A stretch of DNA of 64,000 bases from a virus (Duplodnaviria; Caudoviricetes): IMG/VR virus record IMGVR_UViG_3300024259_001623. One strand, given 5' to 3'. The notes below the pieces were generated by a model. The model did not search any database. It saw nothing but the letters and a program-made list of their open reading frames with translations, and was not told where the DNA came from. Position 1 is the first letter of the stretch. Every line of letters begins with the position of its first letter. Positions 6,644-60,203 of this stretch are shown here, in pieces. The position numbers were made by a program, and so were the translations under genes.

Positions 6644-6892
6644 TGGGCGGGCTGGGAATCGAACCCCGCGACCTTCTTCCGAAAGCATTACGATATTGCC
6701 TTGTCTTACAGGGAATTAAACCCTGGTCTCCTGGCCTAATGCCAGGTATCTTCCATGCAATCTGATACCCTTGGTAAGTCGATCAAACTTTGGTAGAGTA
6801 GTGTTGCACAGTTAGCCACTCATTAGACGATCAGACGCAATAATCTCCTAGGACTACTTTCCGGATGCTGTTATGCCAAATAACTTCCGCCC
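6644..6892 (-). ncRNA. 249-nt tRNA-scaffolded RNA with a nested tRNA-like domain
   Basis: Acceptor GGGCGGA/CCCGCCC, D-like stem GTTAT/ATAAC and GGTTCGATT T-arm enclose a ~180-nt insert that contains a second cloverleaf. Confidence 0.65.
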
Positions 6893-6899
6893 AGAAAAA

Positions 6900-6972
6900 T
6901 ACGCCCACCAGGACTCGAACCTGGAACCGCCACATTAAAAGTGTGATGCTCTGCCAATTGAGCTATAGGCGC
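6900..6972 (-). tRNA. tRNA-Lys(UUU)
   Basis: Canonical cloverleaf; anticodon loop CT TTT AA. Confidence 0.95.
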
Positions 6973-7067
6973 ATAAAGAACAAGAGGGCTTATCTTCCAG
7001 CCAGGATTACAACGTCAGTCAATCTAGCTCTTGTTCTCATTAGGAATTCAACATCAAACTACAGGGA

Positions 7068-7472
7068 TTACCAAGTAGACGGAATAGAGTTGGAAGACGC
7101 ATATGCCTTCTTATACTCAGCCGGCAACTCATCCCAAGGAACGATCTTATGCGTTTGCGTTTGTTCATCGTAATACTTGTACGTCTTTTCAGGGGTCTTT
7201 TTCTCATCTTCATACGAAACGGTGGGTATATTGATAGCTACCATTCCAGCAGGGGCCTCTTGTCCCATCGGACTATTCGGTTCCCTACGAGCAATGATAT
7301 TGGCAGTTTCGCCAAGGCCCATTGAATGAGTCACAGGAGCCTTCATAACCTCTAGGGTTGTAGAAGACGTAAAGGTGAGCCAGGCCCCTTTGCCTGTTTC
7401 AAGATGCGTACCGGCACAACCACCAAGAGCAATAGAGAACAAAACCATAGTGAGCATTGCAGAGCGTTTCAT
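7068..7472 (-). CDS. lipoprotein
   Basis: Signal peptide ending in lipobox LGGC. Confidence 0.75.
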   Translation of the reverse strand: MKRSAMLTMVLFSIALGGCAGTHLETGKGAWLTFTSSTTLEVMKAPVTHSMGLGETANIIARREPNSPMGQEAPAGMVAINIPTVSYEDEKKTPEKTYKYYDEQTQTHKIVPWDELPAEYKKAYASSNSIPSTW

Positions 7473-7535
7473 CGTTTTTCTCCTTCTATGAGCGATTGAC
7501 TCATGAGCATTTTACGAGTTATTGCAGGGATATGA

Positions 7536-7724
7536 TCAGCAGTCGCCTTTGTGTAGGTCCAATTTGGCCTTACGACGTTTTTTTCTGTTGGAAGGCTTTC
7601 CGCCCCAGGAATTGGAACGAAGTCGTCCTGACGCCCTTACAACGTCTAATTCGGCCTCTCTGGCCGCTCGACGCAGGGACTTGACCAATTTCTGCTGTTC
7701 CGTAAGTTTCTTTTTCTTAGCCAT
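7536..7724 (-). CDS. small, highly basic protein
   Basis: Lys/Arg-rich 62-aa ORF with AGGA RBS. Confidence 0.6.
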   Translation of the reverse strand: MAKKKKLTEQQKLVKSLRRAAREAELDVVRASGRLRSNSWGGKPSNRKKRRKAKLDLHKGDC

Positions 7725-7970
7725 AATAATCCTTCTTTCGTTTTACTATGACAATTTCCTTCATTTTATCAGGGAAGATATACCTGATCTGAATAGCACC
7801 AATGCCCATTAGCCAATATAAAAACCACCTTATTGGCCCTAATGTCATCTTCATCTACTTCATCAACATTAGTGCCGCACTTTGTACGAGGATAATCGGT
7901 GATCTGCATTTGTTCTATCTCAGTTCTACCGAAACGAGTATGGATTTCGTCGCCGATTTTAATCATTTTG

Positions 7971-8210
7971 TTATCCCAAGGCTATTTGAGGATCATACCA
8001 ATACGCAGTAAATTCCTTTGCCTTCATGTGTCTGGCCCATAAAGGCTTTTGCCAAACAAACGAAGGTATCCATTCTTCATCTTTTTGACAATAGCTGGCA
8101 GGGACATTCTTGCAATAATGATCCTTATCAATCAAGAAATAACGCCGATCAAGAAGAAAACATCGGCCAGTTTGATTATGTCTAATAACAACATAAACAT
8201 TCGACATCAT
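7971..8210 (-). CDS. hypothetical protein
   Basis: Overlaps the upstream gene by 4 nt (ATGA-type coupling). Confidence 0.55.
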   Translation of the reverse strand: MMSNVYVVIRHNQTGRCFLLDRRYFLIDKDHYCKNVPASYCQKDEEWIPSFVWQKPLWARHMKAKEFTAYWYDPQIALG

Positions 8211-8860
8211 TTTTCTCCTTCGAAGCTTATCTCGCTTAACCGATATCTTAAACCGCCTTCACCATGTATCTCAATAGACTCGTTTTTCTCCAGAACCTTG
8301 ACTGAGGGTATATCGGCCCCGGCCAAAGTAATATGTTCGACTATGAATCTACTCCAACTATTCATAACGATATCTCCCACACGAATTTCTTTTCTTTTTG
8401 CAGGGAGACAGAATTTGACGTAAAGTTCTAAATTGTGATCGTGTCTGAGGACTTCTTTTACTCTTTGTTCTGTTTTTCCCCCAGGAGAATATAAGAAAAC
8501 CCCTACGCAAGAATAATTATAGCCGCCCCCGAATTCTTCATCAATCATATCGATTGTGGCTTTTATAGTAGCCCCAGAACAAACAAAATCATCAATGATG
8601 ATATATTCGCATTGGTCTTTTTCGCAACCTTCTACCATAGAACTACTATGAGAGTTTTCGCAATCTTTTCTCACAAGAATCAAAGGTTTGCCAAGTTTAG
8701 CTGCTACGGCAGGAGCTACTACTGCTCCACTCATTCCCCTAAAGGCGATAGCATCAAACTTTTTTCTTGACTTTTTGATAACTCTGATAACATCATCAAT
8801 AACCGTTGACAAGATCTTACCAGACAGTTGTGCCCCCATATATTCGCTACGAATTGACAT
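8207..8860 (-). CDS. type I phosphoribosyltransferase domain protein
   Basis: FDAIAFRGMSG, LILVRK and the PRPP-binding loop YIIIDDFVCSGATI. Confidence 0.85.
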   Translation of the reverse strand: MSIRSEYMGAQLSGKILSTVIDDVIRVIKKSRKKFDAIAFRGMSGAVVAPAVAAKLGKPLILVRKDCENSHSSSMVEGCEKDQCEYIIIDDFVCSGATIKATIDMIDEEFGGGYNYSCVGVFLYSPGGKTEQRVKEVLRHDHNLELYVKFCLPAKRKEIRVGDIVMNSWSRFIVEHITLAGADIPSVKVLEKNESIEIHGEGGLRYRLSEISFEGEK

Positions 8861-8901
8861 ATTTTCCCTTTCAGTTGCTCTTTTTGATTTTGTGCTTAAT
8901 T

Positions 8902-15629: not shown

Positions 15630-16916
15630 TTACTTTTTGAACTCGATCAAGAAAACCGGATTGACTTGATTAGTCTTATAAACAATCATCTCATTGTTTT
15701 GTACGCCGCTTCTTCCAGCCTTCGCAAAAGTAGAATTGTAACCGCTCTTAGGGAAACTGCGCCCATAAGTAGCTGGGATATATTCTTTACCCATAGCAAC
15801 TTGACATAAGAACATAAAGCAGTTGCTATCTCTTGAGCCGCCCCAATATCCATAAGCATAATTCAAGCTTTTAGTGGATTGGTCAGAAAAATAAACGCCG
15901 TTTCCATACATTCGCCCCGTGCAATGAGAAGCATTAGACGGCGGAATTACAAAACCACCTTTAAGGATAGACAGCAAATTACTAGCCCTAGTTCCATGCC
16001 ATAAATCTCTTACATTGCCAATCTTCTTACCCTTTGCATTGAAGGCATCCAGCATGAAAGCGATTGATACAGAATAGACCCTATGGACCTTCAAAGAATG
16101 ACAAACATGCATTCTATTTCTAGTCTGTCCATACAGTTTCTTGATCCGATCAACAACTTTGCCTTCAGTTACAACATCCATAGCAACATTGAAAAGCTTC
16201 TTTTCGGCGACAACAACCTTCTTGCCTTTGTCATCTTTAGCCCCAGACATTGCAGAAGCATAGGACGATTCAAGACCATCCAAAACATCATTCTGCTTTT
16301 GGACAGCCGCAAGGTCAGGCAAGAACCCCTCAACAGTAAGCTTTCTGCCTACTTCTTGGGGAATAAGCATAAGGTAATCTTCTACATGACGCCTAGTAGA
16401 AGAAAGACCAAACTTTTGCTTTGCTACTGCATCGCCAAGAGAAGCCAAAATCTTTCTGGCTTCATCAATACTGTCTTTGGTAACAATGCCTAACGGTGTC
16501 TTAAAAAGACCGCTATCAACATCAAAAGTAATCTTACCACCAGTTGCATCATAGATATTATGAGCATTTACATCGGTAAGATACTCAATAAGCTTAACAA
16601 CAACTGGATTAGTAGACTGAATCTGTCGCTTGGCAATATCTTTGAGATTGCCTTTAGCAACAACTTTACTAGACGTAGATCCGCCACTATCCAAAGTAGC
16701 TACCGCACGATAGCCTTTATTCTCTTTTTCTCGGGCTTTCTTTTCAGCGTAACGCAGTCCAACACCAGAGAAGGTCTTACTTTGCATACCTTTACCGACT
16801 CTCCCCCATTCGCATAGAACATCGTCATTATCATATAAAGTATATTGCCAAACCTTATTAGAATTCACTTCAATAGAACTCAAAACAAACTTCTTAGTTT
16901 CTACCACGTTGGGCAT
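15630..16916 (-). CDS. WGR-domain poly(ADP-ribose) polymerase (PARP-like)
   Basis: EWGRVG (WGR domain), regulatory helical domain, catalytic HGT / GRMYGNGVYFS / NNEMIVY with an H-Y-E triad. Confidence 0.92.
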   Translation of the reverse strand: MPNVVETKKFVLSSIEVNSNKVWQYTLYDNDDVLCEWGRVGKGMQSKTFSGVGLRYAEKKAREKENKGYRAVATLDSGGSTSSKVVAKGNLKDIAKRQIQSTNPVVVKLIEYLTDVNAHNIYDATGGKITFDVDSGLFKTPLGIVTKDSIDEARKILASLGDAVAKQKFGLSSTRRHVEDYLMLIPQEVGRKLTVEGFLPDLAAVQKQNDVLDGLESSYASAMSGAKDDKGKKVVVAEKKLFNVAMDVVTEGKVVDRIKKLYGQTRNRMHVCHSLKVHRVYSVSIAFMLDAFNAKGKKIGNVRDLWHGTRASNLLSILKGGFVIPPSNASHCTGRMYGNGVYFSDQSTKSLNYAYGYWGGSRDSNCFMFLCQVAMGKEYIPATYGRSFPKSGYNSTFAKAGRSGVQNNEMIVYKTNQVNPVFLIEFKK

Positions 16917-17688
16917 TTGTAATTTCCTCTATAAAACAGAAAGTGTAATTTTTACATTTTCTTTTTCTTCTAATACTATTTGATATTGCTGAAGCAGTTA
17001 CCCCTAATCTCTCAGCCGCCTTGACTATACCATCAAAGACTTCACCAGTCTCTACACAAAATACACTTTTGAGCGACCAGACAGGGACTTTTCCAATTTT
17101 TGCTTGGCTCATTTTTCTTTTGTGTTCTTCTGACCATAATGAGGATGTTTCAGTCTTATCTTTTTTTATAGAAAACCATCGTCTCTTTGCTGCTTTAGAC
17201 AATTTTTGCTTATGTTCTTTTGTGAATTTTTTATTTTTCTTACCTAAAGAAATTTTATTGCGCCATTCTTTACTTCTGTTTTGTTGAGCTTGACGCATTT
17301 TTTCTTTAGTTTCTTCTGTTCTTTTTGTGCCTCTCAAAGATTTTGAAATCTTCTTTTTTGTCTCTTCAGACATATTTTTTCTGTCAGCGTTTAAAGCGTT
17401 AAATCCGAACTCTCTATCTAATGCTTTAAAATATTCTATCCAAAATTCTTCCCTCTTTAGTAAATCACTTTTGTCACATAGTTCTATTATACCAAAAATA
17501 AAACTTTTTTCTCCGTATTTGTTCCAAGAATTTTGTAAGTGCTGACTATGATGCTGATTGTTATTTAATCTGCAACGATGACCAGACCATCGTTTGCTGA
17601 TCCAAACAGCACTCCCGACATACATTTTGCCATTATCTGAACATTTTATCCCGTAAATACCAGTTTCTTTCATAATAAACCTCCACAT
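16894..17688 (-). mobile_element. GIY-YIG homing endonuclease with NUMOD3-type repeats
   Basis: TGIYGIKCSDNGKMYVGS; repeated MSEETKKKIS motifs; C-terminal HTH-like segment. Confidence 0.92.
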
Positions 17689-20356: not shown

Positions 20357-21448
20357 TTATATGGTACAGTACAAAACTTCTGCTAACTTCTTAACTACTA
20401 CCGGATAACTGAATCTTTGTTTCACGTAAGTGTATGCAGCATCAGCCTTTACAGTCATCTCTTCTCTATGAGAAAAAGCATATCTCATCCTTTCTCTGAT
20501 TTGAGACACAGAGATATAGGGCCAGAGAGCATTTTTAAATTGGAAGATGTTGTCTAGACATGGTATTTTATTATAGCCTTCAGGGACCAATAATAATGAA
20601 GTATCCGTATTACCATACTCAACACAACCAGAATGATCTGGGACAATCGTAGGGACTTTTAAGGCCATTGCCTGTAATGCAGGTAATCCAAAACCTTCTC
20701 CTAAACTTGCAGAAATATAACAATCAAAAGATTTTATATAACTCGCTACGTCATCATCATTTATAGTCGAAACATCTATAATAATTTCAGGAAATTCTCC
20801 AATCTTTTTTATAGATCTTTTTATTCTTTTTATAGTATTTTCGACTTGTACTCTGGTTGTATTTGTAGTTTTGATAGTGAGAGAAACATCATCTTGTTTT
20901 GAGAATTCTTCTAAGAAAGCTGTTATCAATTTCTCATAATTTTTTCTTTGCTTCCATGTTCCCATGAACAGAAAATTAAAACTAGTTTTATGTACAACTA
21001 ATTTTAAAACTTCAGGTGTAAAAACATTAAAGTTTATACAGTGAGGTATATAAAAAATAGGAGTTGTGAGCTTTAGTTTTTTAAACTCTCTATAATTAAA
21101 CATGCTCGGTGTTATAATAGCATCATTGCGATTTAAGTAAATACTCCAATTATCCGGAGGACTTGTAGTTTCAAAAGTCGCATAACCTATTGTCCTACCT
21201 ACACTTCTAACTCTTCTCTGCATTTGAGGGATACAATGATAAAGAGCAATACTCGGATTTTTTACACTTTTTTTAATTAGTGATTTATAGAAATCATGCA
21301 GGTCACTATTTATTTTTTTATGAGAACCTAAGTCTAACGCAGTTATATTAACATCATAACCAGCTTCATGAAGTGCTTGTATATTATTTTTTGCTGCTGT
21401 AGCAAAGCCTGTAGCAGATAAAAAACATATATAGTTGATAGGGATCAT
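20357..21448 (-). CDS. GT4 family glycosyltransferase
   Basis: RKNYEKLI, SLGEGFGLPALQAMA. Confidence 0.9.
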   Translation of the reverse strand: MIPINYICFLSATGFATAAKNNIQALHEAGYDVNITALDLGSHKKINSDLHDFYKSLIKKSVKNPSIALYHCIPQMQRRVRSVGRTIGYATFETTSPPDNWSIYLNRNDAIITPSMFNYREFKKLKLTTPIFYIPHCINFNVFTPEVLKLVVHKTSFNFLFMGTWKQRKNYEKLITAFLEEFSKQDDVSLTIKTTNTTRVQVENTIKRIKRSIKKIGEFPEIIIDVSTINDDDVASYIKSFDCYISASLGEGFGLPALQAMALKVPTIVPDHSGCVEYGNTDTSLLLVPEGYNKIPCLDNIFQFKNALWPYISVSQIRERMRYAFSHREEMTVKADAAYTYVKQRFSYPVVVKKLAEVLYCTI

Positions 21449-22098
21449 AACACAGTCATTATCGGATTTTTAGTCAACTCATAATTTTCAGATAACACAC
21501 TAGCATTTATAAATTTTATATCGGCAGATTGATAAACACCAGTTCCCCCATGTATATGTCCAAATACATGTAGCTTTGGCTGTATTTCATACATTCTACT
21601 CAAAAGTATAGGACAACCAGCCAACGATCCATCCCAATGTACATAATCTCCATATCCTTTTGGTGGGCCATGAGTAATTACAATATCAGTGTCTAGTGGA
21701 ATAGTTTGATATAAAAGTGCTGCTCTAGTTTTACCAGCATTACCTGTGGGAAAATTAAATGCCCAATTATACCCAAAATGTGGACTCCAGGGACTTCCCC
21801 ATATTTTAATTCCATCAATCTCTACACTATCATTATAAAGATAGTGCCACGAAAGCTCAATAGTCCATTTTTTTGCATACTGGAAAACAAAATCGTGGTT
21901 ACCTGCAATCCCTACTATATTTTTAGCAGGCACAGAAGAAAGCCAACTGGCGAAATGATCTTTCAACCAGTTGGCTTGCCACGCTGCTTCGTGATTCGTA
22001 GTAGGGCAGATATCTCCCGCAATGATTAACAAGTCACATTCAGGGACCTGTACCTCATCCATCTGTCCATGCATATCAGATATACATGCAATTATCAT
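21445..22098 (-). CDS. calcineurin-like metallophosphoesterase
   Basis: SDMH, AGD, GNHD, THGPP and FGHIH motifs. Confidence 0.92.
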   Translation of the reverse strand: MIIACISDMHGQMDEVQVPECDLLIIAGDICPTTNHEAAWQANWLKDHFASWLSSVPAKNIVGIAGNHDFVFQYAKKWTIELSWHYLYNDSVEIDGIKIWGSPWSPHFGYNWAFNFPTGNAGKTRAALLYQTIPLDTDIVITHGPPKGYGDYVHWDGSLAGCPILLSRMYEIQPKLHVFGHIHGGTGVYQSADIKFINASVLSENYELTKNPIMTVL

Positions 22099-22106
22099 AT
22101 ATTTAC

Positions 22107-23234
22107 TTATCTCTCATCAGCAAGGTAGATAGGACTACGCTGCTTGATGATTAAACGACGCCCCTTAATATACTCTTCTTCCAGTGGCTTGATAACAATG
22201 CCTTCTCTGCGAACATCCGGATAAAGCATAGAATACCCATTAGAGGCTTGCTGTATCGTTACACCCTTCGGGAACAGATCAGTCTCGTGAGGATTCTTAG
22301 ACAGCAACCAATCTTCTAATGTTATATTATAGCCAAGAGTAGGAACAAGTATCAATCCTGCCTTCTTGCCAAACACCTTATTAATGTAATCAATAAAGAT
22401 CGGTGTATTAACCCAAAGACCATTGATTTTAAGGTCAAACAGTCTCACCGTATTCTCTGGGAATTTATAGATATTTTTTTGGACTTTCGGACCAAGCATC
22501 TCTCCATAAACAGTAACGCTTTTGCCTGGATGTTCATCGGCAATTGCATTAGCAAAATCCAAAATACCTTCTCTAATAGCTACTTGCCACCAAGGATTAG
22601 TAGACTTATCCTCAGTTTCAATAGTATGTCTACGAGAGTTAACGTACTCAGTTCTATCAACTCCAATAGTGACAGAGAAATTAGACCCTTCTACTTTCTC
22701 AGAAATCCAGCAAGGTCTAGTCATTAGTGCTTCCACTAGATGCTTATACCTTTCTGCACCTTCAATATCATAGATAGTAAGATCTTCAGGTAAAGTAGTA
22801 AGTTTAGTCTGATTCCCCCCCATCATGCTAAACTGAACAGGTGGCTCATATTTCTCTACTCCAAAATACTGAGTTAACTGTTCGGTGGTAAAAGGCTCAT
22901 CAATCTCGGTAGGATCAGGCTTCTCAACATCCTCGCCCAGCATATCCAGCTTACCTACAATGCCTTGACTAATCTCATCCCTTAGACGGACAGTTTTGAC
23001 ACGGTTTTTCTTACTGCCGGATAATTTTCCCAGTAATCCCATCTTCTCAGAAACCCAATCAGGAAGCAGAGAATCGATAGGGAAGTAGATAACCTCTTCA
23101 CCGGAAGTATAAACACCTTTAGGAATAACAAATTGAAATTCCATACCATCCAGTTTAGCCAGTTCAAGTCTATCTGCATTAGGATGCGGATATACTTTCT
23201 CTATAGTCTCAATTGTTACTCCGAAAAATGCCAT
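22107..23234 (-). CDS. RNA ligase, DRB0094/Rnl2-like family
   Basis: N-terminal HPNADRLELA OB-like domain; EKVEG motif I, YGE, FD, REGIVIK and IIK. Confidence 0.9.
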   Translation of the reverse strand: MAFFGVTIETIEKVYPHPNADRLELAKLDGMEFQFVIPKGVYTSGEEVIYFPIDSLLPDWVSEKMGLLGKLSGSKKNRVKTVRLRDEISQGIVGKLDMLGEDVEKPDPTEIDEPFTTEQLTQYFGVEKYEPPVQFSMMGGNQTKLTTLPEDLTIYDIEGAERYKHLVEALMTRPCWISEKVEGSNFSVTIGVDRTEYVNSRRHTIETEDKSTNPWWQVAIREGILDFANAIADEHPGKSVTVYGEMLGPKVQKNIYKFPENTVRLFDLKINGLWVNTPIFIDYINKVFGKKAGLILVPTLGYNITLEDWLLSKNPHETDLFPKGVTIQQASNGYSMLYPDVRREGIVIKPLEEEYIKGRRLIIKQRSPIYLADER

Positions 23235-23245
23235 TTTATTATCCT

Positions 23246-23869
23246 TTACTTAGTTTTAGTTGCAGAAACTACCTTATGACTGTGGAAAGAACGATACACT
23301 CCATCCTTCAAAATGAAGATCTCGTTCGATGCTCGTTTATTTCCCGCATTCCAAGTGATTAACAAGGCTCTATCAAGCTTTACACTAACGCCAGTTCCCT
23401 TATGAATACCGTTCAAAATACTTTTACCATCGGGTTGAATCTCAATTGTTCCATAAGTGAACTTATAAACGCCTTCCCACTTATGAGCTACACTTGTCGG
23501 AGGCAGAACAGGGACCGGCTTAATCTTAGGTGTTGCGGCCGGCGTTGCAGCTTCAATTTCTTTGTTAACCTCGGCCATTCTAAGAACAAGAATCTTAGAC
23601 AACGTTGCATCACCCTTGTCAACAGACTTCTTCAATTCTCCATGAAGTTGTTTAACATAATCCTTCTTAGCCTGCAATACCTTTGCTTGATATTCTTTTT
23701 CGGCCTGCTTCATGGAATTCTTTAGCTGGATATTAGCAAGCATCAAACCAAGATGCTGATAAGTATCCGCAGTAGGAGCCGCAGGTGCAGGCTTTGTTGT
23801 CGGGGTCTCTGCAACAACAGTACTCGTAGTGATAGCAATAAATAAAATCGCTAAAAATAACTTCTTCAT
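23246..23869 (-). CDS. secreted protein
   Basis: Signal peptide MKKLFLAILFIAIT..VVA and Pro/Ala linkers. Confidence 0.7.
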   Translation of the reverse strand: MKKLFLAILFIAITTSTVVAETPTTKPAPAAPTADTYQHLGLMLANIQLKNSMKQAEKEYQAKVLQAKKDYVKQLHGELKKSVDKGDATLSKILVLRMAEVNKEIEAATPAATPKIKPVPVLPPTSVAHKWEGVYKFTYGTIEIQPDGKSILNGIHKGTGVSVKLDRALLITWNAGNKRASNEIFILKDGVYRSFHSHKVVSATKTK

Positions 23870-23956
23870 TTTAAATCTCCTTTTCTTATAAGTACATGAG
23901 AGAACCTGGGATGATCACCCAGGTCAGTCTCATGCTTCAGTAACGATGTTTGTTAC

Positions 23957-24421: not shown

Positions 24422-24479
24422 TGCTACATCTCCTTAAAAAGTTTAAATTTGCTTTCTACTATATTCTAGCATAAAATCG

Positions 24480-28288: not shown

Positions 28289-28372
28289 ATTGTTTTCGGG
28301 CTACCGCCCTACTCTCGGACTTAAACCGACAATCGTATGTCTACGTGCGTCTACCAATTCCGCCACCCGCCT
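28289..28372 (-). ncRNA. tRNA-Leu-like 5' half fused to a non-tRNA multibranch structure
   Basis: AGGCGGG-TG-GCGGAATTGGTAGACGC D-arm with no matching acceptor 3' strand. Confidence 0.45.
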
Positions 28373-44425: not shown

Positions 44426-46096
44426 CTATATTTTACCGAGAATAAAATCGCTAACCATTTGAGGCGTTGCAGTATCGAAACCTACAACGTTCAACGAGTT
44501 ACGATCTTCGTTGTCAGTGATGCTATAAGGATTAGCTAACATACCACAAGCAATCATCTTAGCATCGTTTCTTCTTTTCTTACTGTCCCGATACAACTTC
44601 AAAGACCGATCTACATGAGTCTCGCCAGCCCAAGTCTCCATATCAGAGAGAATAACAAAAGCATCAACATCTACATTCTTACTCTTTGCCCAATTGGTAG
44701 CGATAGCTGCATCGGTGCCACCAAAGTTGCTCATCTGGGCCTTCTTCATTGCAGTCTGAATCGAATCCTTGGCAGTAATCTTCAAGTCTACCAAATTATG
44801 AGCGAAGCCCATGATATGATAGTTAGGTTCGGTTCTGGCAAAGACCATAGCCATTGCAGCAGCAGCAACGCAAGGACTCATATTACGGATACCAGATACT
44901 TCACCGCCAGCCATAGAACCAGAAACATCAACCGCCAAAAGGATATTCTTACCAGTTGGCTCAACATTCTTGAAGGACAGATAAAAAGCATCGTCCAACG
45001 CATCAAGAATCTGAGGAACTGGCTCATAACCTAACGAAGTAGGATAACCCCAATACGAATGGGTAAACTGATTGCTATAGGCACACATCGCTGCTAATAC
45101 GCTCAAAGGATGAATTCTGGCCTTATGCAACACTTCCTCATTTCTCAAAGTCTCACAAACATACTTTGTAGACGAGGATAGCGGAGTCAAAACGCCTGCC
45201 TTTGTCATATTACGGATATTACGAATCATAGCAGTCATTGGCATACCATCCAGCAATGCCTTCCATACCTTCTTATCATAAAGAGTATTAGGTACGCTCT
45301 CACGAACCAAACCATACTTCTTAATCATAGAAACCATTTCCTTGCTATCATCTACAGTCTTAGCAGTCTCATGTGCCCAGATATATCTAGTGGCATCATT
45401 CTTCTCCAACTTCGCAAACTGGACCTTGGTGAATCCCTTTCTTCCCTTAACGATATACTTCAAAACGGTTTGCATATCCTTACTACCGGGGATCAAGTGG
45501 ATTTTACGCAGCAAATCTCTATGCGACCAAGACGCTTCGCCTTCTACCTTACGCTGAGGATACTTACAAGCCTGGAATGCTACGGAATTAGGAGTCTTAC
45601 TGGTATACCAACTACCAATAGCCTTACGCAAACCTCTACCCCATCCTCTCATTTGGTCTACATAAGTCACGAAACTGAACAAATATGTTCCGATACGACA
45701 GACCTTGTTTAAGTTATCCAAAGCGTACTTACGAATCTCGTCATTATCGCAAGAAGCTGCTAAAGCCATAACAAAGATAGCAGGATCATTCTTGGCTGCA
45801 CGACCTTCATTAGAAACTGCGATAGTTTCGTCAATAGCAGCCATTCCGCCTTCGGTAGTCTTAAACAGCTTAGTTACATTCTTGGCGTTTTCCTTAGCGA
45901 ACTTTTTCTTACCAACATAAAAAGTTCCGCCATCAGAACCAAGAATTAAGAACCTACGAAGATGCTCTAACCGATCAACAGAATAAACATACCCACCGGC
46001 GTTATTCTTGACTTGACGCTTGTTCGCTCTCTGAGTCTGAGGAACGTCTACGTTACGTGAAGCTAAACCACTATCCTTAACAATATTCTTAGCCAT
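44426..46096 (-). CDS. rsr: Ro60/Rsr TROVE-domain RNA-binding protein
   Basis: NNAGGYV, RRFLILGSDGGTFY, MPMTAMIRN, RIHP, vWA MIDAS LAVDVSGSM, GGTD, DAFVILSDMETW, VVGFD. Confidence 0.96.
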   Translation of the reverse strand: MAKNIVKDSGLASRNVDVPQTQRANKRQVKNNAGGYVYSVDRLEHLRRFLILGSDGGTFYVGKKKFAKENAKNVTKLFKTTEGGMAAIDETIAVSNEGRAAKNDPAIFVMALAASCDNDEIRKYALDNLNKVCRIGTYLFSFVTYVDQMRGWGRGLRKAIGSWYTSKTPNSVAFQACKYPQRKVEGEASWSHRDLLRKIHLIPGSKDMQTVLKYIVKGRKGFTKVQFAKLEKNDATRYIWAHETAKTVDDSKEMVSMIKKYGLVRESVPNTLYDKKVWKALLDGMPMTAMIRNIRNMTKAGVLTPLSSSTKYVCETLRNEEVLHKARIHPLSVLAAMCAYSNQFTHSYWGYPTSLGYEPVPQILDALDDAFYLSFKNVEPTGKNILLAVDVSGSMAGGEVSGIRNMSPCVAAAAMAMVFARTEPNYHIMGFAHNLVDLKITAKDSIQTAMKKAQMSNFGGTDAAIATNWAKSKNVDVDAFVILSDMETWAGETHVDRSLKLYRDSKKRRNDAKMIACGMLANPYSITDNEDRNSLNVVGFDTATPQMVSDFILGKI

Positions 46097-46141
46097 TTTT
46101 CATCTCCCTTTTATAGTTATATCCCAAAATTTTTATAAATT

Positions 46142-46270
46142 ACTAGGTAAGTTAGTAGCATGGTTATATGCCCCCGTTCTATCATTAAACTATATCGCCG
46201 CTATTGCGACGACACCAGGAATCAAACCTGATTTTGGGGTTTATGGATAACCCAATGCCTTCGACCCAGT
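46142..46270 (-). ncRNA. yrlA: Y RNA 1 (YrlA-type, permuted tRNA domain)
   Basis: 5' ACTGGGTCGAAGG / 3' CTTACCTAGT Ro stem enclosing a T-arm, a loop-closed acceptor and a D-arm. Confidence 0.85.
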
Positions 46271-46290
46271 TATGTTCTTCTATATAAAAT

Positions 46291-46423
46291 ACTAGGTAAG
46301 TTATTAGTATGGTTGATATTACTGACGCTCTGCCGTTGAGCTATATACCGGCTTTGCCGATATAGCAGGATTCGAACCTACAACCTTCAGTTCCGGTTGA
46401 TAAACCAATACATTCGACCCAGT
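46291..46423 (-). ncRNA. yrlA: Y RNA 2 (YrlA-type)
   Basis: Same termini; GTAGG-TTCGAAT-CCTGC, acceptor closed by GGC-AAA-GCC, TAGCTCAACGGCAGAGC D-arm. Confidence 0.88.
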
Positions 46424-46461
46424 TATTTTCTTCTTTTTTATCCCTTATATTTTTATAAAAT

Positions 46462-46589
46462 ACTAGGTAAGTTGTTGGAATGGTATAATGCTCTGCCAAT
46501 TGAGCTATGTCGCTACATTGTAACGACAATGGGAATCGAACCCATAACCTTCTCATTAAAAGTGATAAACCATATCCATTCGACCCAGT
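46462..46589 (-). ncRNA. yrlA: Y RNA 3 (YrlA-type)
   Basis: Same termini; ATGGG-TTCGATT-CCCAT, TGTCG/CGACA, TAGCTCAATTGGCAGAGC. Confidence 0.88.
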
Positions 46590-46715
46590 TATTTTCTTTT
46601 AAAGCAAAAAATAAGTTGCCTAACAAATTAATATTAAGCAACTTATCCTTTTTTAAGCACCCGACGCCCTCTTACACCAATACATTTCCGAACGAGTCGT
46701 CACAGTTTATAAAAA

Positions 46716-46780
46716 AAGGCAAGTTAGTGTCAATAGCGTAGTGATCATTAAAAGTGATAAGCTATCGAAATTCGGCCCTT
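46716..46780 (-). ncRNA. Y RNA 4 (short)
   Basis: AAGGGCCGAA / ACTTGCCTT stem, TTATC motif, apical ATCA-CTTTTAA-TGAT hairpin. Confidence 0.7.
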
Positions 46781-46799
46781 TATTTTTCTATTTTATATA

Positions 46800-46879
46800 A
46801 AAGGATAAGTTTACGTTAATAGTTTTATTGGTTTTGATCTCTTAAATCATAATTGATAAACTATCAACTTCGACCCTTT
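46800..46879 (-). ncRNA. Y RNA 5 (short)
   Basis: AAAGGGTCGAAG / ACTTATCCTT stem, TTATC motif. Confidence 0.7.
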
Positions 46880-46976
46880 ACTTTCTAAGTTAATACCTAT
46901 TTTTTTATTTATAGGTCTTTTGACGTTAGGTATCAAACGCCCGGTAGCGAACCGGCTGACCTCCATTCTAAAACAA

Positions 46977-47042
46977 AAAGGCAAGTTATTATTAATAGTT
47001 ATTTTTATCCCTTTGATGATAAACTATTAAATTCGGCCCTTT
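46977..47042 (-). ncRNA. Y RNA 6 (short)
   Basis: AAAGGGCCGAA / ACTTGCCTTT stem, TTAATAGTT/AACTATTAA upper stem, TTATC motif. Confidence 0.7.
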
Positions 47043-47110
47043 AAAAAATCTCGGTTCCTACACCGTCATATAGACGGGAGAAGAAAATTCGAGATCATTT
47101 CTTCAAAAGA

Positions 47111-47280
47111 TAATATGAGGCGGCTCTAGGAAAAATTAAAAAACCTGAAACCTATTATCCAAACCTTACATCGGCTCCTGTCAACTGTTCTCTCCTGGTA
47201 AGGAGCCTACGATACAAACCAAACCGACTCAACTTTGCAATAAAACAAACTTTATGAAAAGAAAGAGCCGCCTCATATTA
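47111..47280 (-). ncRNA. 170-nt rod-like structured RNA candidate
   Basis: Perfect 17-bp terminal inverted repeat TAATATGAGGCGGCTCT; inner GGCTCCT/AGGAGCC stem; U-rich bubble. Confidence 0.55.
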
Positions 47281-47282
47281 AA

Positions 47283-47379
47283 CGAAGACCGCTGGATTCG
47301 AACCAACAACCTCAAGGGCTAATCCTTAGTCCCAACAACCTTTTTTGCCCTTGCGCTCTGCCAATTGAGCTACATCTTC
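47283..47379 (-). ncRNA. tRNA-like RNA with an expanded anticodon loop
   Basis: Canonical D- and T-arms; 7-bp CAAGGGC/GCCCTTG stem closing a 27-nt loop. Confidence 0.65.
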
Positions 47380-47385
47380 TTATAA

Positions 47386-47452
47386 ATCGGATTAGGTTTG
47401 TCCGTAGGGGGCTTTCATTCTCTATATGATAACCTACAAACTTCGACCCGAT
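47386..47452 (-). ncRNA. Y RNA 7 (short)
   Basis: ATCGGGTCGAAG / ATCCGAT stem, TTATC motif, 5' end just downstream of the promoter. Confidence 0.65.
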
Positions 47453-47457
47453 GTTAT

Positions 47458-47915: not shown

Positions 47916-48000
47916 TACTCCCTCCCGGGATCGAACCGGGACACCCGAAGGTACAGGTGCCTAAAACCTGTGCGTCTGCCATTTATTCCGCCAAGGGAGC
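47916..48000 (-). tRNA. tRNA-Leu(UAG)
   Basis: Loop TT TAG GC, long variable arm, A73. Confidence 0.93.
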
Positions 48001-50328: not shown

Positions 50329-51147
50329 TTAGTCGTTTATAAGAAATTCATCATTTTCTGATAAATCTTTGACGCATCTATAACAATTTAAATTAGGCAA
50401 CCAAACTCTATGTTCTCCCGTTATTTTTATCATTCTGCCATCTTCTAACTCAATTTCATACCATTCTTTTTTACTATTCTCATTGATAGAGAATCCATCA
50501 ATTTTTTTGTATTCAATCTGACCAGTTTCAGCATCCATAGATAAAACTTTACAATCTATTTTTTGCTCACAAACGTCTTGTATGCTCTTTATTCCCAAAT
50601 CCGTATTTAACTCAGTTTCTTGGTCAAGACAGTTCTCACCGTCCATTTTAACGGTCACAACGACCTCTCTACCTTCAAAGTGTTCTGTAGACTTTAATTG
50701 TCGATCATCATTAGTTAATCCAGGACTCCAAGGCAAATGTAAAGTTCTAGGATACTTAATATATTTAGAAAATAAATATAATACTTTCCCTTGCTTTAAA
50801 ATCTTTTGTACTGAATGATCAAAGAATAATTCTCCTTTTAATCTTTCTCCGCTTGGCAACATAATATTTCCCCACTTATCATATTCATATTCGTCATATA
50901 AATGAGAAGGAATAATTACGTTTTCGATGCCAGCAGCCATTCTTAAATCTTCACAAGAAAGATGAGTTTGTTCAGCCGCAATATGATGATATCCGCACAA
51001 AGAGACACCGTTATCTAAATGATAACCGCCATCATCCCATAAACGTCTTTCTATGATATGATGAGCATCTTGCGCATCTTTTCCGCATATAACGCATTTG
51101 TGGTTATCTCTTTCAAAAACAGATTGTCTAAATTCATCTCTAGTCAT
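50329..51147 (-). CDS. HNH domain plus RNA ligase N-part plus split-intein N-half (100 aa)
   Basis: FERDNHKCVICG..DAHHI HNH domain; KYPRTLHLPWS and KMDGEN motif I; then CLDQET...TGEHRVW intein blocks A/B. Confidence 0.92.
   Translation of the reverse strand: MTRDEFRQSVFERDNHKCVICGKDAQDAHHIIERRLWDDGGYHLDNGVSLCGYHHIAAEQTHLSCEDLRMAAGIENVIIPSHLYDEYEYDKWGNIMLPSGERLKGELFFDHSVQKILKQGKVLYLFSKYIKYPRTLHLPWSPGLTNDDRQLKSTEHFEGREVVVTVKMDGENCLDQETELNTDLGIKSIQDVCEQKIDCKVLSMDAETGQIEYKKIDGFSINENSKKEWYEIELEDGRMIKITGEHRVWLPNLNCYRCVKDLSENDEFLIND
50332..50631 (-). mobile_element. IntN of a naturally split intein
   Basis: Begins with Cys1; TxxH block B; 23 acidic versus 12 basic residues. Confidence 0.9.
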
Positions 51148-53740: not shown

Positions 53741-53748
53741 GTATATAA

Positions 53749-57648: not shown

Positions 57649-57726
57649 TTTTTTTCCTTTACTAAAAAATATTTACGACACTATATTATACTTGGATGTT
57701 ATTATTTTGCAATTAAAATATTTTAA

Positions 57727-57800
57727 TAGCGATGGTGAGGATCGAACTCACAGCCTCTCGCTTATGAAACGAGCGCTCAGACCTATTGAGCTTCACCGCT
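57727..57800 (-). tRNA. tRNA-Met(CAU)
   Basis: Loop TT CAT AA; A at position 8 is atypical. Confidence 0.85.
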
Positions 57801-58058: not shown

Positions 58059-58077
58059 TATACATCTCCTTCTTAAA

Positions 58078-58176
58078 ATCAGCGAAAAGGATTCGAACCA
58101 ATAACTGCCCTCTACCAGTAAGATAGCATGTTGCTTACTAAGCGGGGAGCCATGTTGCCAATTACACCATCGCTGA
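58078..58176 (-). ncRNA. tRNA-like RNA with an inserted hairpin in the anticodon arm
   Basis: Acceptor TCAGCGA/TCGCTGA, D-arm, weak T-stem; AGTAAG/CTTACT insert. Confidence 0.55.
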
Positions 58177-58652: not shown

Positions 58653-58769
58653 TAAATAGGACGGGATTCGAACCCGCAACCTTCTGTTTCAGGTTGGATC
58701 AGCCTGTGAGGAATAGAACCTGCATAGGTCAGCCGTCGCTTGTATTTAACCAGTTAATACTACCTATTC
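58653..58769 (-). ncRNA. 117-nt expanded tRNA-like RNA
   Basis: GAATAGG/CCTATTT acceptor, GTATT/AATAC D-stem, GCGGG-TTCGAAT-CCCGT; ~60-nt insert. Confidence 0.65.
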
Positions 58770-58784
58770 ACCAATCAATCCAAA

Positions 58785-58939
58785 TACCAAGAGCAGGATT
58801 CGAACCTACACGCCTTTAGTTCCTATATACGCCTATGATATATAGCGAACTCTGTAAAATCAAATAGACTTCAAATATTCAACCTTACTTCAGCAACGGG
58901 TATTATCCCGTCGTGTCTAACCATTTCCACCATCTTGGG
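58785..58939 (-). ncRNA. 155-nt Leu-type tRNA-like RNA with a giant variable region
   Basis: GGTGGAAATGGTTAGACAC D-arm, ACGGG/CCCGT with a 6-nt loop, T-arm, A73. Confidence 0.65.
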
Positions 58940-58948
58940 ATATAACAA

Positions 58949-59109
58949 TGCAGAGAGTTGGACTCGAACCAACAAACCTAAGTAGAATAAAATCTAAGTT
59001 CATTCTTAACTTGCATACTAGACATCAATGTCCTTGTCATTGCACCCAGTTATGCTCTAGGTCATAGAACCATAAGCTCTAATTGCGTTACCAATTACGC
59101 TACCTCCGC
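58949..59109 (-). ncRNA. 161-nt expanded tRNA-like RNA
   Basis: GCGGAGG/TCTCTGC acceptor, GCGT/ACGC D-stem, GTTGG-TTCGAGT-CCAAC; multi-hairpin insert; 5' end overlaps the sigma-factor stop codon. Confidence 0.65.
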
Positions 59110-59916
59110 TTTAAATCCTTCCGCATACCTCGCAATATCAGCATTAATTCCACTCCTATCAATACTAAACAATCTATGAACTTCGCGTAAAGCCGCTTTA
59201 TATCTGTAATGCGCTCCACTCTCTGTCAGTCCAAGTTCCTTGGCTATTTGAATTTTTCCCTCTCCAAAAACAGCCGATTTAATAAGAATATCCCTATGTT
59301 CATTACTAAGCTTACTAATCAACGAATATACCAAATCTTTATCTTCAAGAGCCTGATCTGGACTTCTGTGAGGATCAAGTATCGGTGTATCAAAGTCCGG
59401 CGTTATCGTTATAGATTGTTTTGTAAACCATTTAACAGCACTATCTATGCAAGATATATTTTTATCTGACAAATTAGCCTCTTCTTTAATACGTTTTGGA
59501 GACTCATCTTGCTTACCATGCAAGTCAAATTGGGCCTTTCTATATGCAGCCATGTTACGACGAACAGAACGAGGAATACCACTCCATTCAGATTGACAAT
59601 CAACTATCATACCACGAACCCTTCTATACGCATAAAGAACAAAAGAATCAATCCCTTTGTCTTGCTGCTCCGGGTCAAACTTTCGTAACGCTTTCACTAA
59701 ACCTATAGAAGCTTCCGCTATCAAATCATCAAGGTCTACCTGTATATTAAAATACTTTTTAGTAGTAGAAGATAATTTAATAATCCAAGCCCAATAATTT
59801 TTTACCAAAATATTTTCATCATGGCTATTATGATCGGCTTTATATCTCAGCCATACTTTTTCTAACTTATTTTTATCTAAGCTTTTAGCTATGTTTAATC
59901 TTTTTTCTTTCTGCAT
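59095..59916 (-). CDS. sigma-70 family (FliA/sigma28-like) sigma factor
   Basis: DDLIAEASIGLVKALRKFDP, YAYRRVRGMIVD and a region 4 HTH IAKELGLTES. Confidence 0.9.
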   Translation of the reverse strand: MQKEKRLNIAKSLDKNKLEKVWLRYKADHNSHDENILVKNYWAWIIKLSSTTKKYFNIQVDLDDLIAEASIGLVKALRKFDPEQQDKGIDSFVLYAYRRVRGMIVDCQSEWSGIPRSVRRNMAAYRKAQFDLHGKQDESPKRIKEEANLSDKNISCIDSAVKWFTKQSITITPDFDTPILDPHRSPDQALEDKDLVYSLISKLSNEHRDILIKSAVFGEGKIQIAKELGLTESGAHYRYKAALREVHRLFSIDRSGINADIARYAEGFKAEVA

Positions 59917-59946
59917 CGTTTTTCCAATCCATTATATATCCACAAG

Positions 59947-60026
59947 GACCGTTAGTAGGAATTGAACCTACGAATATTCCCAGGCTTAACGCCATAGGAA
60001 TGCGTGTACCTCTCGCCTCAACGATC
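59947..60026 (-). ncRNA. tRNA-like RNA with a lengthened anticodon arm
   Basis: 8-bp acceptor (G-1:C73 style), T-arm GTAGG-TTCAATT-CCTAC, TTCCT/GGGAA plus inner GGC/GCC stem. Confidence 0.55.
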
Positions 60027-60041
60027 ATTTACAACAATAAG

Positions 60042-60203
60042 GGCCAGCGACCGGATTCGAACCGGCAAGCCTAGTATATTTTTCCAAAAACGATTACTTT
60101 TTCGAAGCATCCTTCGCAAATTCTGTATAACTTTTTATACAGTAATAATGCTTTCGGCCACGGGACCGTCTTCCCGCTGCGTTTCCAATGCGCCACACTG
60201 ACC
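60042..60203 (-). ncRNA. 162-nt expanded tRNA-like RNA
   Basis: GGTCAGTG/CGCTGGCC acceptor, GCGGG/CCCGT with an 8-nt loop, ~90-nt variable region with hairpins, T-arm. Confidence 0.65.

Follow-up and report, generated by a model that had tools for sequence, protein, structure and literature searches.

Plant mitochondrial t-elements are non-decoding tRNA-like structures inside mRNA precursors; they carry a GGTTCRANYCC T-arm motif, RNase P and RNase Z cut them, a C or CCA that is not encoded is added, and they set the 5' and 3' ends of mRNAs (Forner et al. 2007, PMC1920247). YrlA-type Y RNAs of bacteria and phages are also non-decoding tRNA mimics, recognised by tRNA enzymes (Chen et al. 2014, PMC4201824; Rfam RF02553). 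Lak megaphages have "enigmatic" tRNA introns, and tRNAs of this kind may be common among phages with large genomes (Devoto et al. 2019; bioRxiv 10.1101/356790, PMC6784885). Finally, the tRNA cluster of phage T4 includes an annotated small stable RNA, species 1 RNA (rnaC, NC_000866 70908-71046).

We find that a marine phage of ~434 kb, of which we analysed a 64,000-nt stretch (the window), has at least eight genes with the shape of the upper half of a tRNA, each with a different folded insert replacing the codon-reading arm (Table 1). These elements (E1-E8) probably act as processed RNA modules rather than decoders. Our explanation, that they are real, non-decoding tRNA derivatives which RNase P and RNase Z would cut out as they do the tRNA neighbours, is offered tentatively, its chance being a little short of even. 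An earlier note on this DNA had called them a family of eight. Judged by sequence, they are a class and not a sequence family, because the scaffolds of the eight differ; eight members are confirmed and more exist, the list being biased towards elements with intact scaffolds. Class membership reaches beyond it to three elements just outside the window, in which the acceptor helix is kept through two-sided changes at several pairs, to a similar element in the related contig L011 (L011:2425-2533, z -3.5), and to the 595-kb phage LR756511.1, which has the same kind of element.

Table 1. Positions, scaffold pairing and main structural traits of the eight elements, with the sigma-70-like gene that lies among them
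Feature	Position	Strand	Length (nt)	Acceptor	D stem	T stem	Description
E1	6644-6892	-	249	6/7	4/4	4/5	GC-rich 6-bp acceptor, short AU-only D arm, T arm with one mismatch
E2	47283-47379	-	97	6/7	4/4	5/5	Anticodon stem extended to 7 bp, closing a 27-nt loop
E3	58078-58176	-	99	7/7	4/4	3/5	Perfect 7-bp acceptor, good D arm, weak T stem; most degenerate of the eight
E4	58653-58769	-	117	7/7	4/4	5/5	Perfect scaffold; 64-nt middle
E5	58785-58939	-	155	6/7	3/3	5/5	Class II-type D arm (3-bp stem, 12-nt loop)
E6	58949-59109	-	161	7/7	4/4	5/5	Perfect scaffold; nearest canonical scaffold is the phage tRNA-Ala
E7	59947-60026	-	80	7/7	3/3	5/5	7- or 8-bp acceptor, 3-bp D stem, perfect T arm; z -3.1
E8	60042-60203	-	162	7/7	3/3	5/5	Perfect acceptor and T arm, 3-bp D stem; cargo z -3.3
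Sigma-70-like gene	59095-59916	-					Between the E8-E7 pair and the E6-E5-E4 trio

Direct reading and constrained folds bear out the earlier placement of all eight elements, each with an acceptor stem, a D arm and a T arm. Pairing holds at 53/56 acceptor, 29/29 D-stem and 37/40 T-stem positions, leaving 6 of 125 scaffold pairs mismatched, and no element shows any change in the D-loop GG, the T-loop UUCRA (UUCGA or UUCAA) or the G53-C61 pair. The cloverleaf scaffold can be imposed on seven elements at a cost of 0-1 kcal/mol, and on E3, the weakest, at 5.4 kcal/mol. The Rfam tRNA model exceeds its gathering score on E2 (43 bits) and E6 (36.2 bits) and gives 19.8 bits on E8, and the tRNA-Sec model gives 18.9 bits on E7; E1, E3, E4 and E5 are not matched by these models, and ARAGORN at default settings calls none of the eight. 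The minus strand has 27 copies of a strict T-arm motif, the plus strand none. Against a null of random 3' strands, the joint probability of a matching 5' strand and D arm for all eight orphan T arms is ~2e-7 (the product of per-element values, among which the three 6/7-acceptor cases are individually uninformative, with null ~0.5-0.6). Chance origin of the scaffolds is excluded.

The scaffolds match the canonical tRNAs in the 74 kb that we examined (of ~434 kb) at 28-35 of 51 positions, the level seen between unrelated tRNAs, and therefore the elements are not fresh copies; no close parent tRNA was found for any of them in those 74 kb. Two parts do resemble particular genes: the E2 D arm is identical to those of tRNA-Lys(UUU) and one YrlA copy, and the T arm of E4 is shared, letter for letter, with two phage tRNA-Glu genes out of three. 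Scaffolds almost undamaged, though far from every canonical tRNA examined, favour selection on tRNA shape. The earlier suggestion of function rather than decay is supported in part, in that the acceptor, D and T arms are kept while the middle diverges, a pattern that looks like constraint.

A possible objection is that the elements are decaying tRNA pseudogenes from a fast birth-and-death array, surviving for a time though functionless, with anticodon arms lost by insertion or illegitimate recombination between tRNA genes and with any RNase P/Z cuts incidental. Relatives give this some weight. In the gene map of the relative with a 56%-identical sigma protein, found with the sigma-70-like gene as query, only 29 nt are left at the E8-E7 site, with both elements lacking, and the E6-E5-E4 site has 134 nt rather than the 463 nt here, with no room for the trio; a contig with a 61%-identical Ro60 has no counterpart of E2. 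The elements are absent from the nearest relatives or not placed alike there, and therefore turn over fast; this lack of conservation counts against our own explanation too. Upstream of its AAA gene, L011 has a syntenic region rich in tRNAs, most of them canonical, whereas the window holds mostly odd ones. Decay would also fit the homing endonuclease genes in the window, a clearly degenerate Leu-like fragment at 28290-28372, and extra T-arm-like pieces in E1 (a hairpin at 6709-6725) and E4 (a second such hairpin, at 58709-58721, in its middle), as tRNA-tRNA recombination would leave. The damaged stems point the same way, and the weak T stem of E3 and the several mismatches of E1 count against our own explanation. 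However, neutral decay should strike scaffold and middle alike, which the low mismatch count and the invariant loop bases contradict; no close parent tRNA turned up in the 74 kb examined, we saw few intermediate wrecks among the T-arm-bearing loci, and neutral DNA in phages is usually deleted, not expanded by 25-175 nt of well-folding sequence. We regard decay as unlikely, but as an objection to be taken seriously.

At the decoding end, the earlier statement that there is no canonical anticodon loop is correct: none of the eight has, in the standard register, a 7-nt U33 loop on a 5-bp stem. The one exception is off-register, in E6, where a 5-bp stem with the 7-nt loop CUUAUGG is possible, but with two bases too many between it and the D stem. 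E1 has ~200 nt of branched cargo between its D and T arms, matching no Rfam family and including, besides the T-arm-like hairpin, a 5-bp stem with a 7-nt loop. The Rfam tRNA match of E2 has a 31-nt insert in the place of the loop. E5 has a 7-bp hairpin with a 6-nt loop at the anticodon position and, in the place of the variable arm, ~80 nt with two 13-bp hairpins (cargo z -3.6); E6 has a small hairpin at the anticodon position, followed by a ~90-nt branched arm; E7 has a ~10-bp hairpin with a 5-nt loop instead of an anticodon arm; and E8 has, at the anticodon position, a 6-bp hairpin with a 6-nt loop, then a ~75-nt branched arm and an unpaired A-rich stretch. The inserts are, as had been claimed, unrelated and rich in hairpins: comparing them with one another, with the remaining window, with the 10 kb beyond it and with L011 gave no significant similarity, and by themselves they fold with a mean z of -2.0, against -0.53 (sd 1.24) in 40 control segments, reaching -3.0 to -3.6 in E5, E7 and E8. 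Signatures of group I introns, tmRNA and Y RNA were found in none of the eight.

The resemblance to Lak megaphages is that very large phage genomes yield tRNA calls which are oversized or labelled pseudo; LR756511.1 provides further examples of such calls. The proposal made for the Lak genes (bioRxiv 10.1101/356790), which the earlier note had raised here as spliced precursors, is that they are interrupted tRNA genes, whose inserts a phage or host endonuclease would remove as non-canonical introns, with a phage RNA ligase joining the exons into decoding tRNAs. Ligase genes are indeed present, although we confirm two in the window rather than the three reported. With 7 nt taken out, E7 would have a perfect canonical arm whose loop is AUGGCGU, and those 7 nt pair with the would-be anticodon; removing 27 nt from E3 gives the loop CUGGUAG on a 4/5 stem; in a tRNA(CAU) of LR756511.1, a hairpin of 21 nt lies immediately 5' of the loop UUCAUAA, which is intact; and Lak tRNAs are known both with and without inserts (bioRxiv 10.1101/356790). 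However, exhaustive single excisions restored the arm in two elements only, E7 by strict and E3 by loose rules, no more than in shuffles (two solutions against about one expected in total), and left six of the eight with no solution, strict or relaxed. ARAGORN makes intron calls only with C33, mismatched stems or odd positions, and Rfam detects no group I intron or other intron family. In E5, E6 and E8 the extra sequence falls after a hairpin whose own loop is non-canonical. Alanine identity is missing in E7, where the 3:70 pair is U-G as against the G-U of tRNA-Ala, and a splicing endonuclease was seen in 0 of 20 proteins scanned. Once the predicted excision is made, the Lak genes have an isotype and an anticodon, and they also occur as insert-free alleles; our elements mostly have no restorable anticodon arm, have much of their extra sequence at the variable-arm position, and have no known insert-free alleles. 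We consider splicing into decoding tRNAs very improbable.

The elements do sit among normal tRNAs, with tRNA-Lys(UUU) 6 nt upstream of E1 and tRNA-Met downstream of E3, and they share the slots of tRNAs, so that processing in the style of RNase P/Z, as the earlier note supposed, is plausible. UU directly follows the discriminator in 6/8 elements and in most of 13 canonical tRNAs, and CCA is encoded in neither the elements nor the canonical tRNAs compared. Tandem elements are 9-15 nt apart, not far from the 8-nt spacing of the tRNA-Glu genes. E1, E3 and E4 end 19, 19 and 20 nt, respectively, before an ATG with a Shine-Dalgarno site (GGAG, AAGGAG and AAGGAG); for canonical tRNA-Met, Gly and Glu the distance is 15-25 nt. 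A scan inside the cluster found no standout promoter, and no terminators except the T arms themselves.

We infer that E1-E8 are transcribed, processed and stable. RNase P and RNase Z recognise a tRNA by its elbow and acceptor/T-arm domain rather than by its anticodon, and their cuts are expected here because both the acceptor/T-arm helix and the elbow of D and T loops are kept in each element. Long minus-strand operons would transcribe the elements from the same intergenic slots as ordinary phage tRNAs; RNase P would cut the 5' end of each, and an RNase Z-type activity would cut 3' of the discriminator, with CCA addition to follow. This processing would free stable tRNA-shaped RNAs, and the same cuts would split the polycistronic transcript so that the next gene keeps a 19-20-nt leader with its ribosome-binding site. 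The anticodon/variable region, freed from decoding constraint, may then have grown into lineage-specific folded arms. The model adopted is that of the t-elements, whose GGTTCRANYCC T-arm motif is the same; these differ in being organellar, about tRNA-sized, with non-canonical cloverleaves and without 25-175 nt of cargo, and their ends were mapped experimentally, whereas those of E1-E8 are predicted. Two arrangements do not suit non-decoding derivatives of this kind: the tandem sets of two and three exceed what punctuation needs, and the first 15 nt of E6 overlap the final four codons and stop codon of the sigma-like gene, so that a cut at its 5' end would take off that stop codon.

Tandem arrays are, on the other hand, what product genes would show, and a further reading is that the elements are tRNA-scaffolded effector RNAs, in which the body would serve processing, CCA addition, stability and perhaps charging, and the insert would do the work, perhaps by acting as a decoy or sponge for host factors in tRNA conflict, as a partner of the Ro60 and RNA-repair proteins of the phage, or as a regulatory RNA. 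Decoys and stable carriers had been among the candidates of the earlier note. The full elbow in 8/8, D arm included, goes beyond minimal RNase P/Z signals, and the inserts are more structured than controls. E6, alone among the eight, has G3-U70 and A73, the alanine identity set, a known anticodon-independent charging signal, although a single G3-U70 among eight is within chance expectation. The window is rich in RNA functions, encoding Ro60, three YrlA-like genes (by reading; partial matches), one with the D-arm sequence of E2, two RNA ligases and a phosphoesterase, and by reading several short Y-like RNAs. E2 itself belongs to the non-coding island of Ro60 and Y RNA, where it follows, at a distance of 4 nt, a weak match to a nematode sRNA family (47384-47455, 24.8 bits) that we read as a short Y RNA. 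Yet the inserts have no common motif and no detectable target (complementarity of >=17 nt in the window, the 10 kb beyond or L011), their G-U excess and sense-over-antisense stability are within what the G>C skew of the strand yields, and no orthologue supports conservation of any insert. The elements resemble YrlA in their T arm, D arm and acceptor stem, but YrlA is circularly permuted, with the T arm before the D arm and the acceptor closed by a loop, and ends in a Ro-binding helix with a GNCGAA motif; the elements have the normal tRNA order and free acceptor ends, a Ro-binding helix in 0/8, and 7/8 lie far from the Ro60 gene. An effector role for the inserts is, on balance, unlikely.

A stable RNA of comparable build, which an effector role could also invoke, is T4 species 1 RNA. 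Like the elements it is in line with phage tRNAs, and it adjoins a homing endonuclease gene; it has a perfect terminal T arm (CCGGG-UUCGAAU-CCCGG), beyond which its 3' strand pairs with the 5' end, and a large, strongly folded interior (z -4.6) without an anticodon arm. No sequence similarity of the elements to rnaC was found, and rnaC has no defined family. By reading, rnaC has two U-U mismatches in its closing helix and no recognisable D arm with GG, whereas in the elements both the D arm and the elbow are complete. Two such RNAs are present in T4, against eight within 64 kb of the phage studied here and others outside that stretch.

Each of the eight tRNA-shaped elements (E1-E8, in coordinate order; see the table below) carries a tRNA scaffold, that is, an acceptor helix, a D arm and a T arm, where the earlier note had placed one. 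On the minus strand the 5′-terminal 7 nt of each element pair with the 7 nt after its 3′ T arm, and a D arm lies at the usual offset in all eight; summed over the set, standard pairs fill 53 of 56 acceptor, 29 of 29 D-stem and 37 of 40 T-stem positions. All eight have GG in the D loop and a T loop of UUCGA or UUCAA inside the G53-C61 closing pair. Relative to the free minimum-energy fold, imposing the scaffold adds no more than 1 kcal/mol in seven of the eight; for E3, with only three T-stem pairs, the cost is 5.4 kcal/mol.

Elements and protein genes of the window
Feature	Position	Strand	Domains, source or context
E1	6644-6892	-	
E2	47283-47379	-	
E3	58078-58176	-	
E4	58653-58769	-	
E5	58785-58939	-	
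E6	58949-59109	-	
E7	59947-60026	-	
E8	60042-60203	-	
Ro60 orthologue	44426-47455 region	-	TROVE and vWA domains
T4 Rnl1-like RNA ligase	within window	-	protein domain scan
Second RNA ligase	within window	-	OB fold (PHA02142 OB domain)
Calcineurin-like phosphoesterase	within window	-	protein domain scan
Sigma-70-like proteins (two)	within window	-	protein domain scan
MoxR-type AAA ATPase and its partner	within window	-	protein domain scan
GIY-YIG and HNH endonucleases	within window	-	protein domain scan
PARP-like protein	15630-17688	-	WGR, regulatory and catalytic domains; adjoins GIY-YIG/NUMOD3 homing endonuclease gene
HNH and intein-like (Hint) protein	50329-51147	-	

Two elements align end to end with the Rfam tRNA model (RF00005) above its gathering threshold of 29 bits, E2 at 43 bits with a 31-nt insertion in the middle and E6 at 36.2 bits with a 92-nt insertion; E8 (19.8 bits, tRNA model) and E7 (18.9 bits, tRNA-Sec model) align weakly, and E1, E3, E4 and E5 gave no match at E values up to 10. 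A strict T-arm pattern has 27 matches on the minus strand and none on the plus strand; by our tally these belong to canonical tRNAs, three YrlA-like RNAs and the E elements, the remainder being one hairpin within E1 and one overlapping false match. The joint chance of a matching 5′ strand and D arm for all eight orphan T arms is ~2e-7, a product over elements that takes random 3′ strands as its null and to which the three cases with 6/7 acceptor pairs add little singly. Chance origin of the elements is ruled out.

What the elements lack is the decoding arm. As had been claimed, none has a canonical one (a 5-bp stem one base past the D stem, a 7-nt loop, U33 and a purine at 37) in the standard register, and ARAGORN at default settings calls none. 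The loops at the anticodon position are of 3-8 nt, or the arm is replaced altogether; E6 has a canonical-like arm only as an off-register alternative. With introns allowed, ARAGORN calls only E2, E3 and E6, each non-canonical. E2 is read as Phe(AAA) and has C33; the Thr(GGU) call for E3 needs a mismatched stem and puts the insert at position 33/34; and in E6, called as a UUA suppressor, the stem is again mismatched and position 37 is a pyrimidine.

Splicing could in principle restore decoding, and the earlier note had proposed precursors spliced by endonucleases and three RNA ligases. Two RNA ligases were confirmed in the window; a second protein of 387 aa (26536-27699) proved on comparison not to be a paralogue of the Rnl1-like ligase. 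We tried every single removal that leaves a middle of class I length between the D and T arms, requiring a 5-bp stem, U33 and a purine at 37. E7 alone succeeded, loss of 7 nt giving the loop AUGGCGU, and E3 also passes if one stem mismatch is tolerated; shuffled middles yield about one solution over eight elements, so the two are unremarkable. No group I intron model matched around any element at E values up to 10, the insert is <115 nt in seven of the eight, and a Pfam scan of 20 window proteins showed no endonuclease of the family that splices intron-bearing pre-tRNAs. We therefore regard spliced pre-tRNAs as very improbable. A tRNA(CAU) of the 595-kb uncultured phage LR756511.1 (220338-220430), with a 21-nt hairpin between position 31 and an otherwise intact UUCAUAA loop, is a cleaner removable-insert candidate than any element of the window.

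The inserts are unrelated and hairpin-rich, in agreement with the earlier description. E5, E6 and E8 have a short hairpin at the anticodon position (loops of 6, 3 and 6 nt, respectively) and, 3′ of it, a branched structure of 75-90 nt at the variable-arm position; E2 and E7 have lengthened arms, and the middles of E1 and E4 are complex and include extra T-arm-like hairpins. Compared with each other, with the rest of the window, with the 10 kb past its end and with the related contig L011, the inserts show no significant similarity, which rules them out as copies of a mobile repeat. Folded alone they have a mean z of -2.0 (E5, E7 and E8 from -3.0 to -3.6) against -0.53 (sd 1.24) for 40 control segments matched in length and strand; the inserts fold better than expected. 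We discarded as support an excess of G-U over A-C pairs (31 versus 3) and the greater stability of the sense strand, since the strand's G>C skew gives nearly the same bias (sense-versus-antisense folding -43.7 kcal/mol, against a skew-control mean of -27.8, sd 13.8).

Known classes did not account for the inserts. An Rfam scan of all of them returned no group I intron, ribozyme, tmRNA or other family. ARAGORN called no tmRNA, neither a tag frame nor a set of pseudoknots was convincing, and the full D arm with its GG, retained throughout, speaks against that class; a 21-codon open frame that we read in E6 is not significant, and E6 was dropped as a tmRNA-like candidate. The Ro-binding helix and permuted order of Y RNA/YrlA (RF02553) are absent from all eight elements, of which only E2 lies near the Ro60 gene. 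A Ro-binding motif, GGCCGAAAG, in E8 was likewise rejected, as by our reading it could pair only with the T stem itself.

That well-folded inserts sit on intact scaffolds would suit a reading in which the inserts themselves act as effectors, although we hold such scaffolded effector RNAs to be unlikely. The tRNA body might then be a natural expression and stability scaffold for changing folded effectors, processed, CCA-tailed and in some cases charged (E6, the only element with the alanine identity pair G3-U70, by AlaRS); this proposal is likewise doubtful. It has its principle in common with engineered tRNA scaffolds, and the putative effectors would take part in the contest between phage and host over tRNAs and RNA quality control, for example as decoys for enzymes that recognize the tRNA body, or as partners of the phage's Ro60 and RNA-repair proteins. 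If the inserts do act, the set would be a natural modular RNA-display system.

The surroundings of the elements are those of ordinary tRNAs, as the earlier note had held. E1 begins 6 nt past tRNA-Lys(UUU); the spacers within the tandem sets E8-E7 and E6-E5-E4 are 9-15 nt, close to the 8 nt of a tRNA-Glu trio; and E1, E3 and E4 end 19-20 nt upstream of an ATG with a Shine-Dalgarno site, a slot that canonical tRNA-Met, Gly and Glu occupy at 15-25 nt. Neither the listed elements nor the listed canonical tRNAs encode CCA, and UU directly follows the discriminator in six of the eight elements and in most of the 13 canonical tRNAs. Within the cluster, promoter-like sites number 20 against 12.5 expected, with no standout, and the minus strand has no terminator-like sites other than the T arms themselves. 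All eight elements, co-oriented with the flanking genes, carry a t-element-type signal (a GGTTCRANYCC-type T arm plus an acceptor-like helix). The t-elements of plant mitochondria are non-decoding and have the same T-arm motif, and RNase P and RNase Z cuts at them form mRNA ends (PMC1920247).

Every element keeps the parts read by processing and charging enzymes and has lost the part read by the ribosome. The reading we favour, at somewhat short of even confidence, is that the elements are non-decoding tRNA derivatives kept for their shape, with predicted excision by RNase P and RNase Z and with inserts free to expand. These enzymes would cut out the elements as they do the neighbouring tRNAs, and excision would punctuate long transcripts. 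One site has a possible cost: the first 15 nt of E6 (59095-59109, minus strand) overlap the last four codons and the stop of the sigma-like gene (59095..59916, minus strand, between the E8-E7 pair and the E6-E5-E4 trio), these final codons and the stop falling within the E6 acceptor strand and D stem. If RNase P processed E6, the sigma mRNA would thus be left without a stop; the overlap could be regulatory, or could be a sign that E6 is poorly processed.

A rival to retention for shape is that the elements would be neutral pseudogenes. Over the window and the next 10 kb (74 of ~434 kb searched for parent tRNAs), the scaffolds match canonical tRNAs at 28-35 of 51 positions, the level of unrelated tRNAs, and so are not recent copies. 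Their stems and invariant loop bases are almost undamaged in a list that is itself biased to intact scaffolds, and in three further members just past the window the acceptor helix survives changes on both sides of several pairs. Scaffolds at once intact and divergent, together with these outside members, point to constraint.

Other observations point to turnover. By its gene map only, the sole diverged relative of the sigma-like gene (56% identical; sample ERZ23498361, where the Ro60 identity is 78%) has a gap of 29 nt at the E8-E7 site and one of 134 nt where E6, E5 and E4 take 463 nt. No relatives of this gene were found in viral contigs or JGI metagenome contigs, and a 22-nt piece of E6 matched nothing in viral contigs. 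One contig encodes a 61%-identical Ro60, together with a YrlA-like element and a short Y RNA motif; it yields no further strict T arm, ARAGORN calls no tRNA in it, and hence E2 has no counterpart there. The syntenic tRNA-rich region upstream of the AAA gene in L011 (49% identity) holds 13 canonical tRNAs and a few odd ones, and the matching region of the window one canonical tRNA and six odd ones. Just past tRNA-Arg(UCU) we noticed the sole clear tRNA wreck, a degenerate tRNA-Leu-like fragment (28290-28372, minus strand) that retains the 5′ strand, D arm and T-arm-like hairpin and has no matching 3′ acceptor strand. These gaps, the tRNA mix of L011 and this fragment would all fit loss and gain. 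In ten contigs that carry the sigma-like gene, this region differs from the window by 0 or 1 mismatch each (99.96-100% identity), so that population variation offers no covariation test. The earlier preference for function over decay thus holds in part: the scaffolds are nearly intact and far from canonical tRNAs, and the elements are absent from, or differently placed in, the nearest relatives. We consider neutral pseudogenes fairly unlikely, on balance.

The minus strand carries every gene and tRNA of the window. Neither the cluster nor the window matched any of 50,697 phage records at the DNA level; an identical sigma-like protein is encoded on 21 metagenome contigs of up to 434,625 bp. The runs containing the window DNA are seawater metagenomes, and no RNA run was found listed among them. 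The protein content fits a very large phage. An RNA-repair-like block (21445-26491, minus strand) comprises the Rnl1-like ligase, a sigma-70-like protein, the RNA ligase with the PHA02142 OB domain and the calcineurin-like phosphoesterase; its gene order is conserved in L011:9265-13602.

Similar elements occur elsewhere. At least four more members lie in the 10 kb past the window end: L013:242-361 (on the DNA just beyond the window) and three whose T-stem region carries a long insert. One element of L011 is closed by an 11-bp helix and includes two T-arm-like hairpins (z -3.5). In LR756511.1 there are 64 tRNA matches, several of 90-127 nt, the one of 127 nt without an anticodon loop; an orthologue search with one of its oversized tRNAs returned that tRNA alone. 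Large phages may commonly have tRNAs with enigmatic introns of the Lak type (bioRxiv 10.1101/356790). T4 species 1 RNA, in the T4 tRNA cluster beside segB, has a perfect T arm and closing helix at its end and a strongly folded interior (z -4.6); unlike the E elements, it has no recognisable D arm.

Phage tRNA genes are usually viewed only as codon supply or anti-defence. The annotation of T4 species 1 RNA still goes no further than a small stable RNA, and "enigmatic" is how the oversized tRNAs of megaphages were described. The set here is dense and varied, eight elements and more nearby, with differing scaffolds and insertion sites, close to Ro60, Y RNAs and RNA ligases. Should the elements be processed, punctuation by tRNA-like structures would be a general transcript-cutting route in very large phages.

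Some further RNAs deserve mention. Two tRNA calls in L011 (L011:345-428 and L011:2779-2867) are Lys (CUU and UUU) of class II with long variable arms. This architecture is unusual in a tRNA-Lys, and the two may be mis-sense or re-assigned. Two more tRNA-like sequences missed by ARAGORN (L011:170-265 and L011:790-880) have normal-looking UGG and UGC anticodon loops and T loops of AGCGUUA and AGCAUUA rather than UUCRANY. In the window, a well-formed class II tRNA-Leu(UAG) at 47916-47999 (minus strand) is missed by default ARAGORN and by Rfam and found by ARAGORN at a 90% threshold.

Upstream of the Ro60 orthologue is a 1.4-kb non-coding island with, by our reading, three tandem YrlA-type Y RNAs at ~46150-46600. 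YrlA RNAs are Ro60-bound tRNA mimics (PMC4201824), with a permuted order (T arm before D arm) and a Ro-binding helix, neither of which E1-E8 have. The three copies have in common a 5′ strand, AUAACUGGGUCGAA, and a 3′ strand, AACUUACCUAGU, which together mimic the Ro-binding helix of vertebrates, bulged C included; only two of the three gave Rfam matches, both partial, at about 29-30 bits. ARAGORN and Rfam (33.7 bits) both call tRNA-Lys(UUU) at 46520-46593 (minus strand), but this stretch is apparently no tRNA and instead forms the 5′ part of a YrlA RNA, its T arm continuing into a loop-closed acceptor and D arm. Four short Y/sbRNA-like genes (~46712-46784, 46797-46882, 46970-47040 and 47384-47455, minus strand) also lie here, three of them with weak matches to a nematode sRNA family. 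Directly past E2, ~170 nt (47105-47275, minus strand) are closed by a perfect 15-bp helix (AUAUGAGGCGGCUCU and its complement) and followed by a terminator-like hairpin with a U run at ~47040-47095; this stretch may be a further non-coding RNA of the island.
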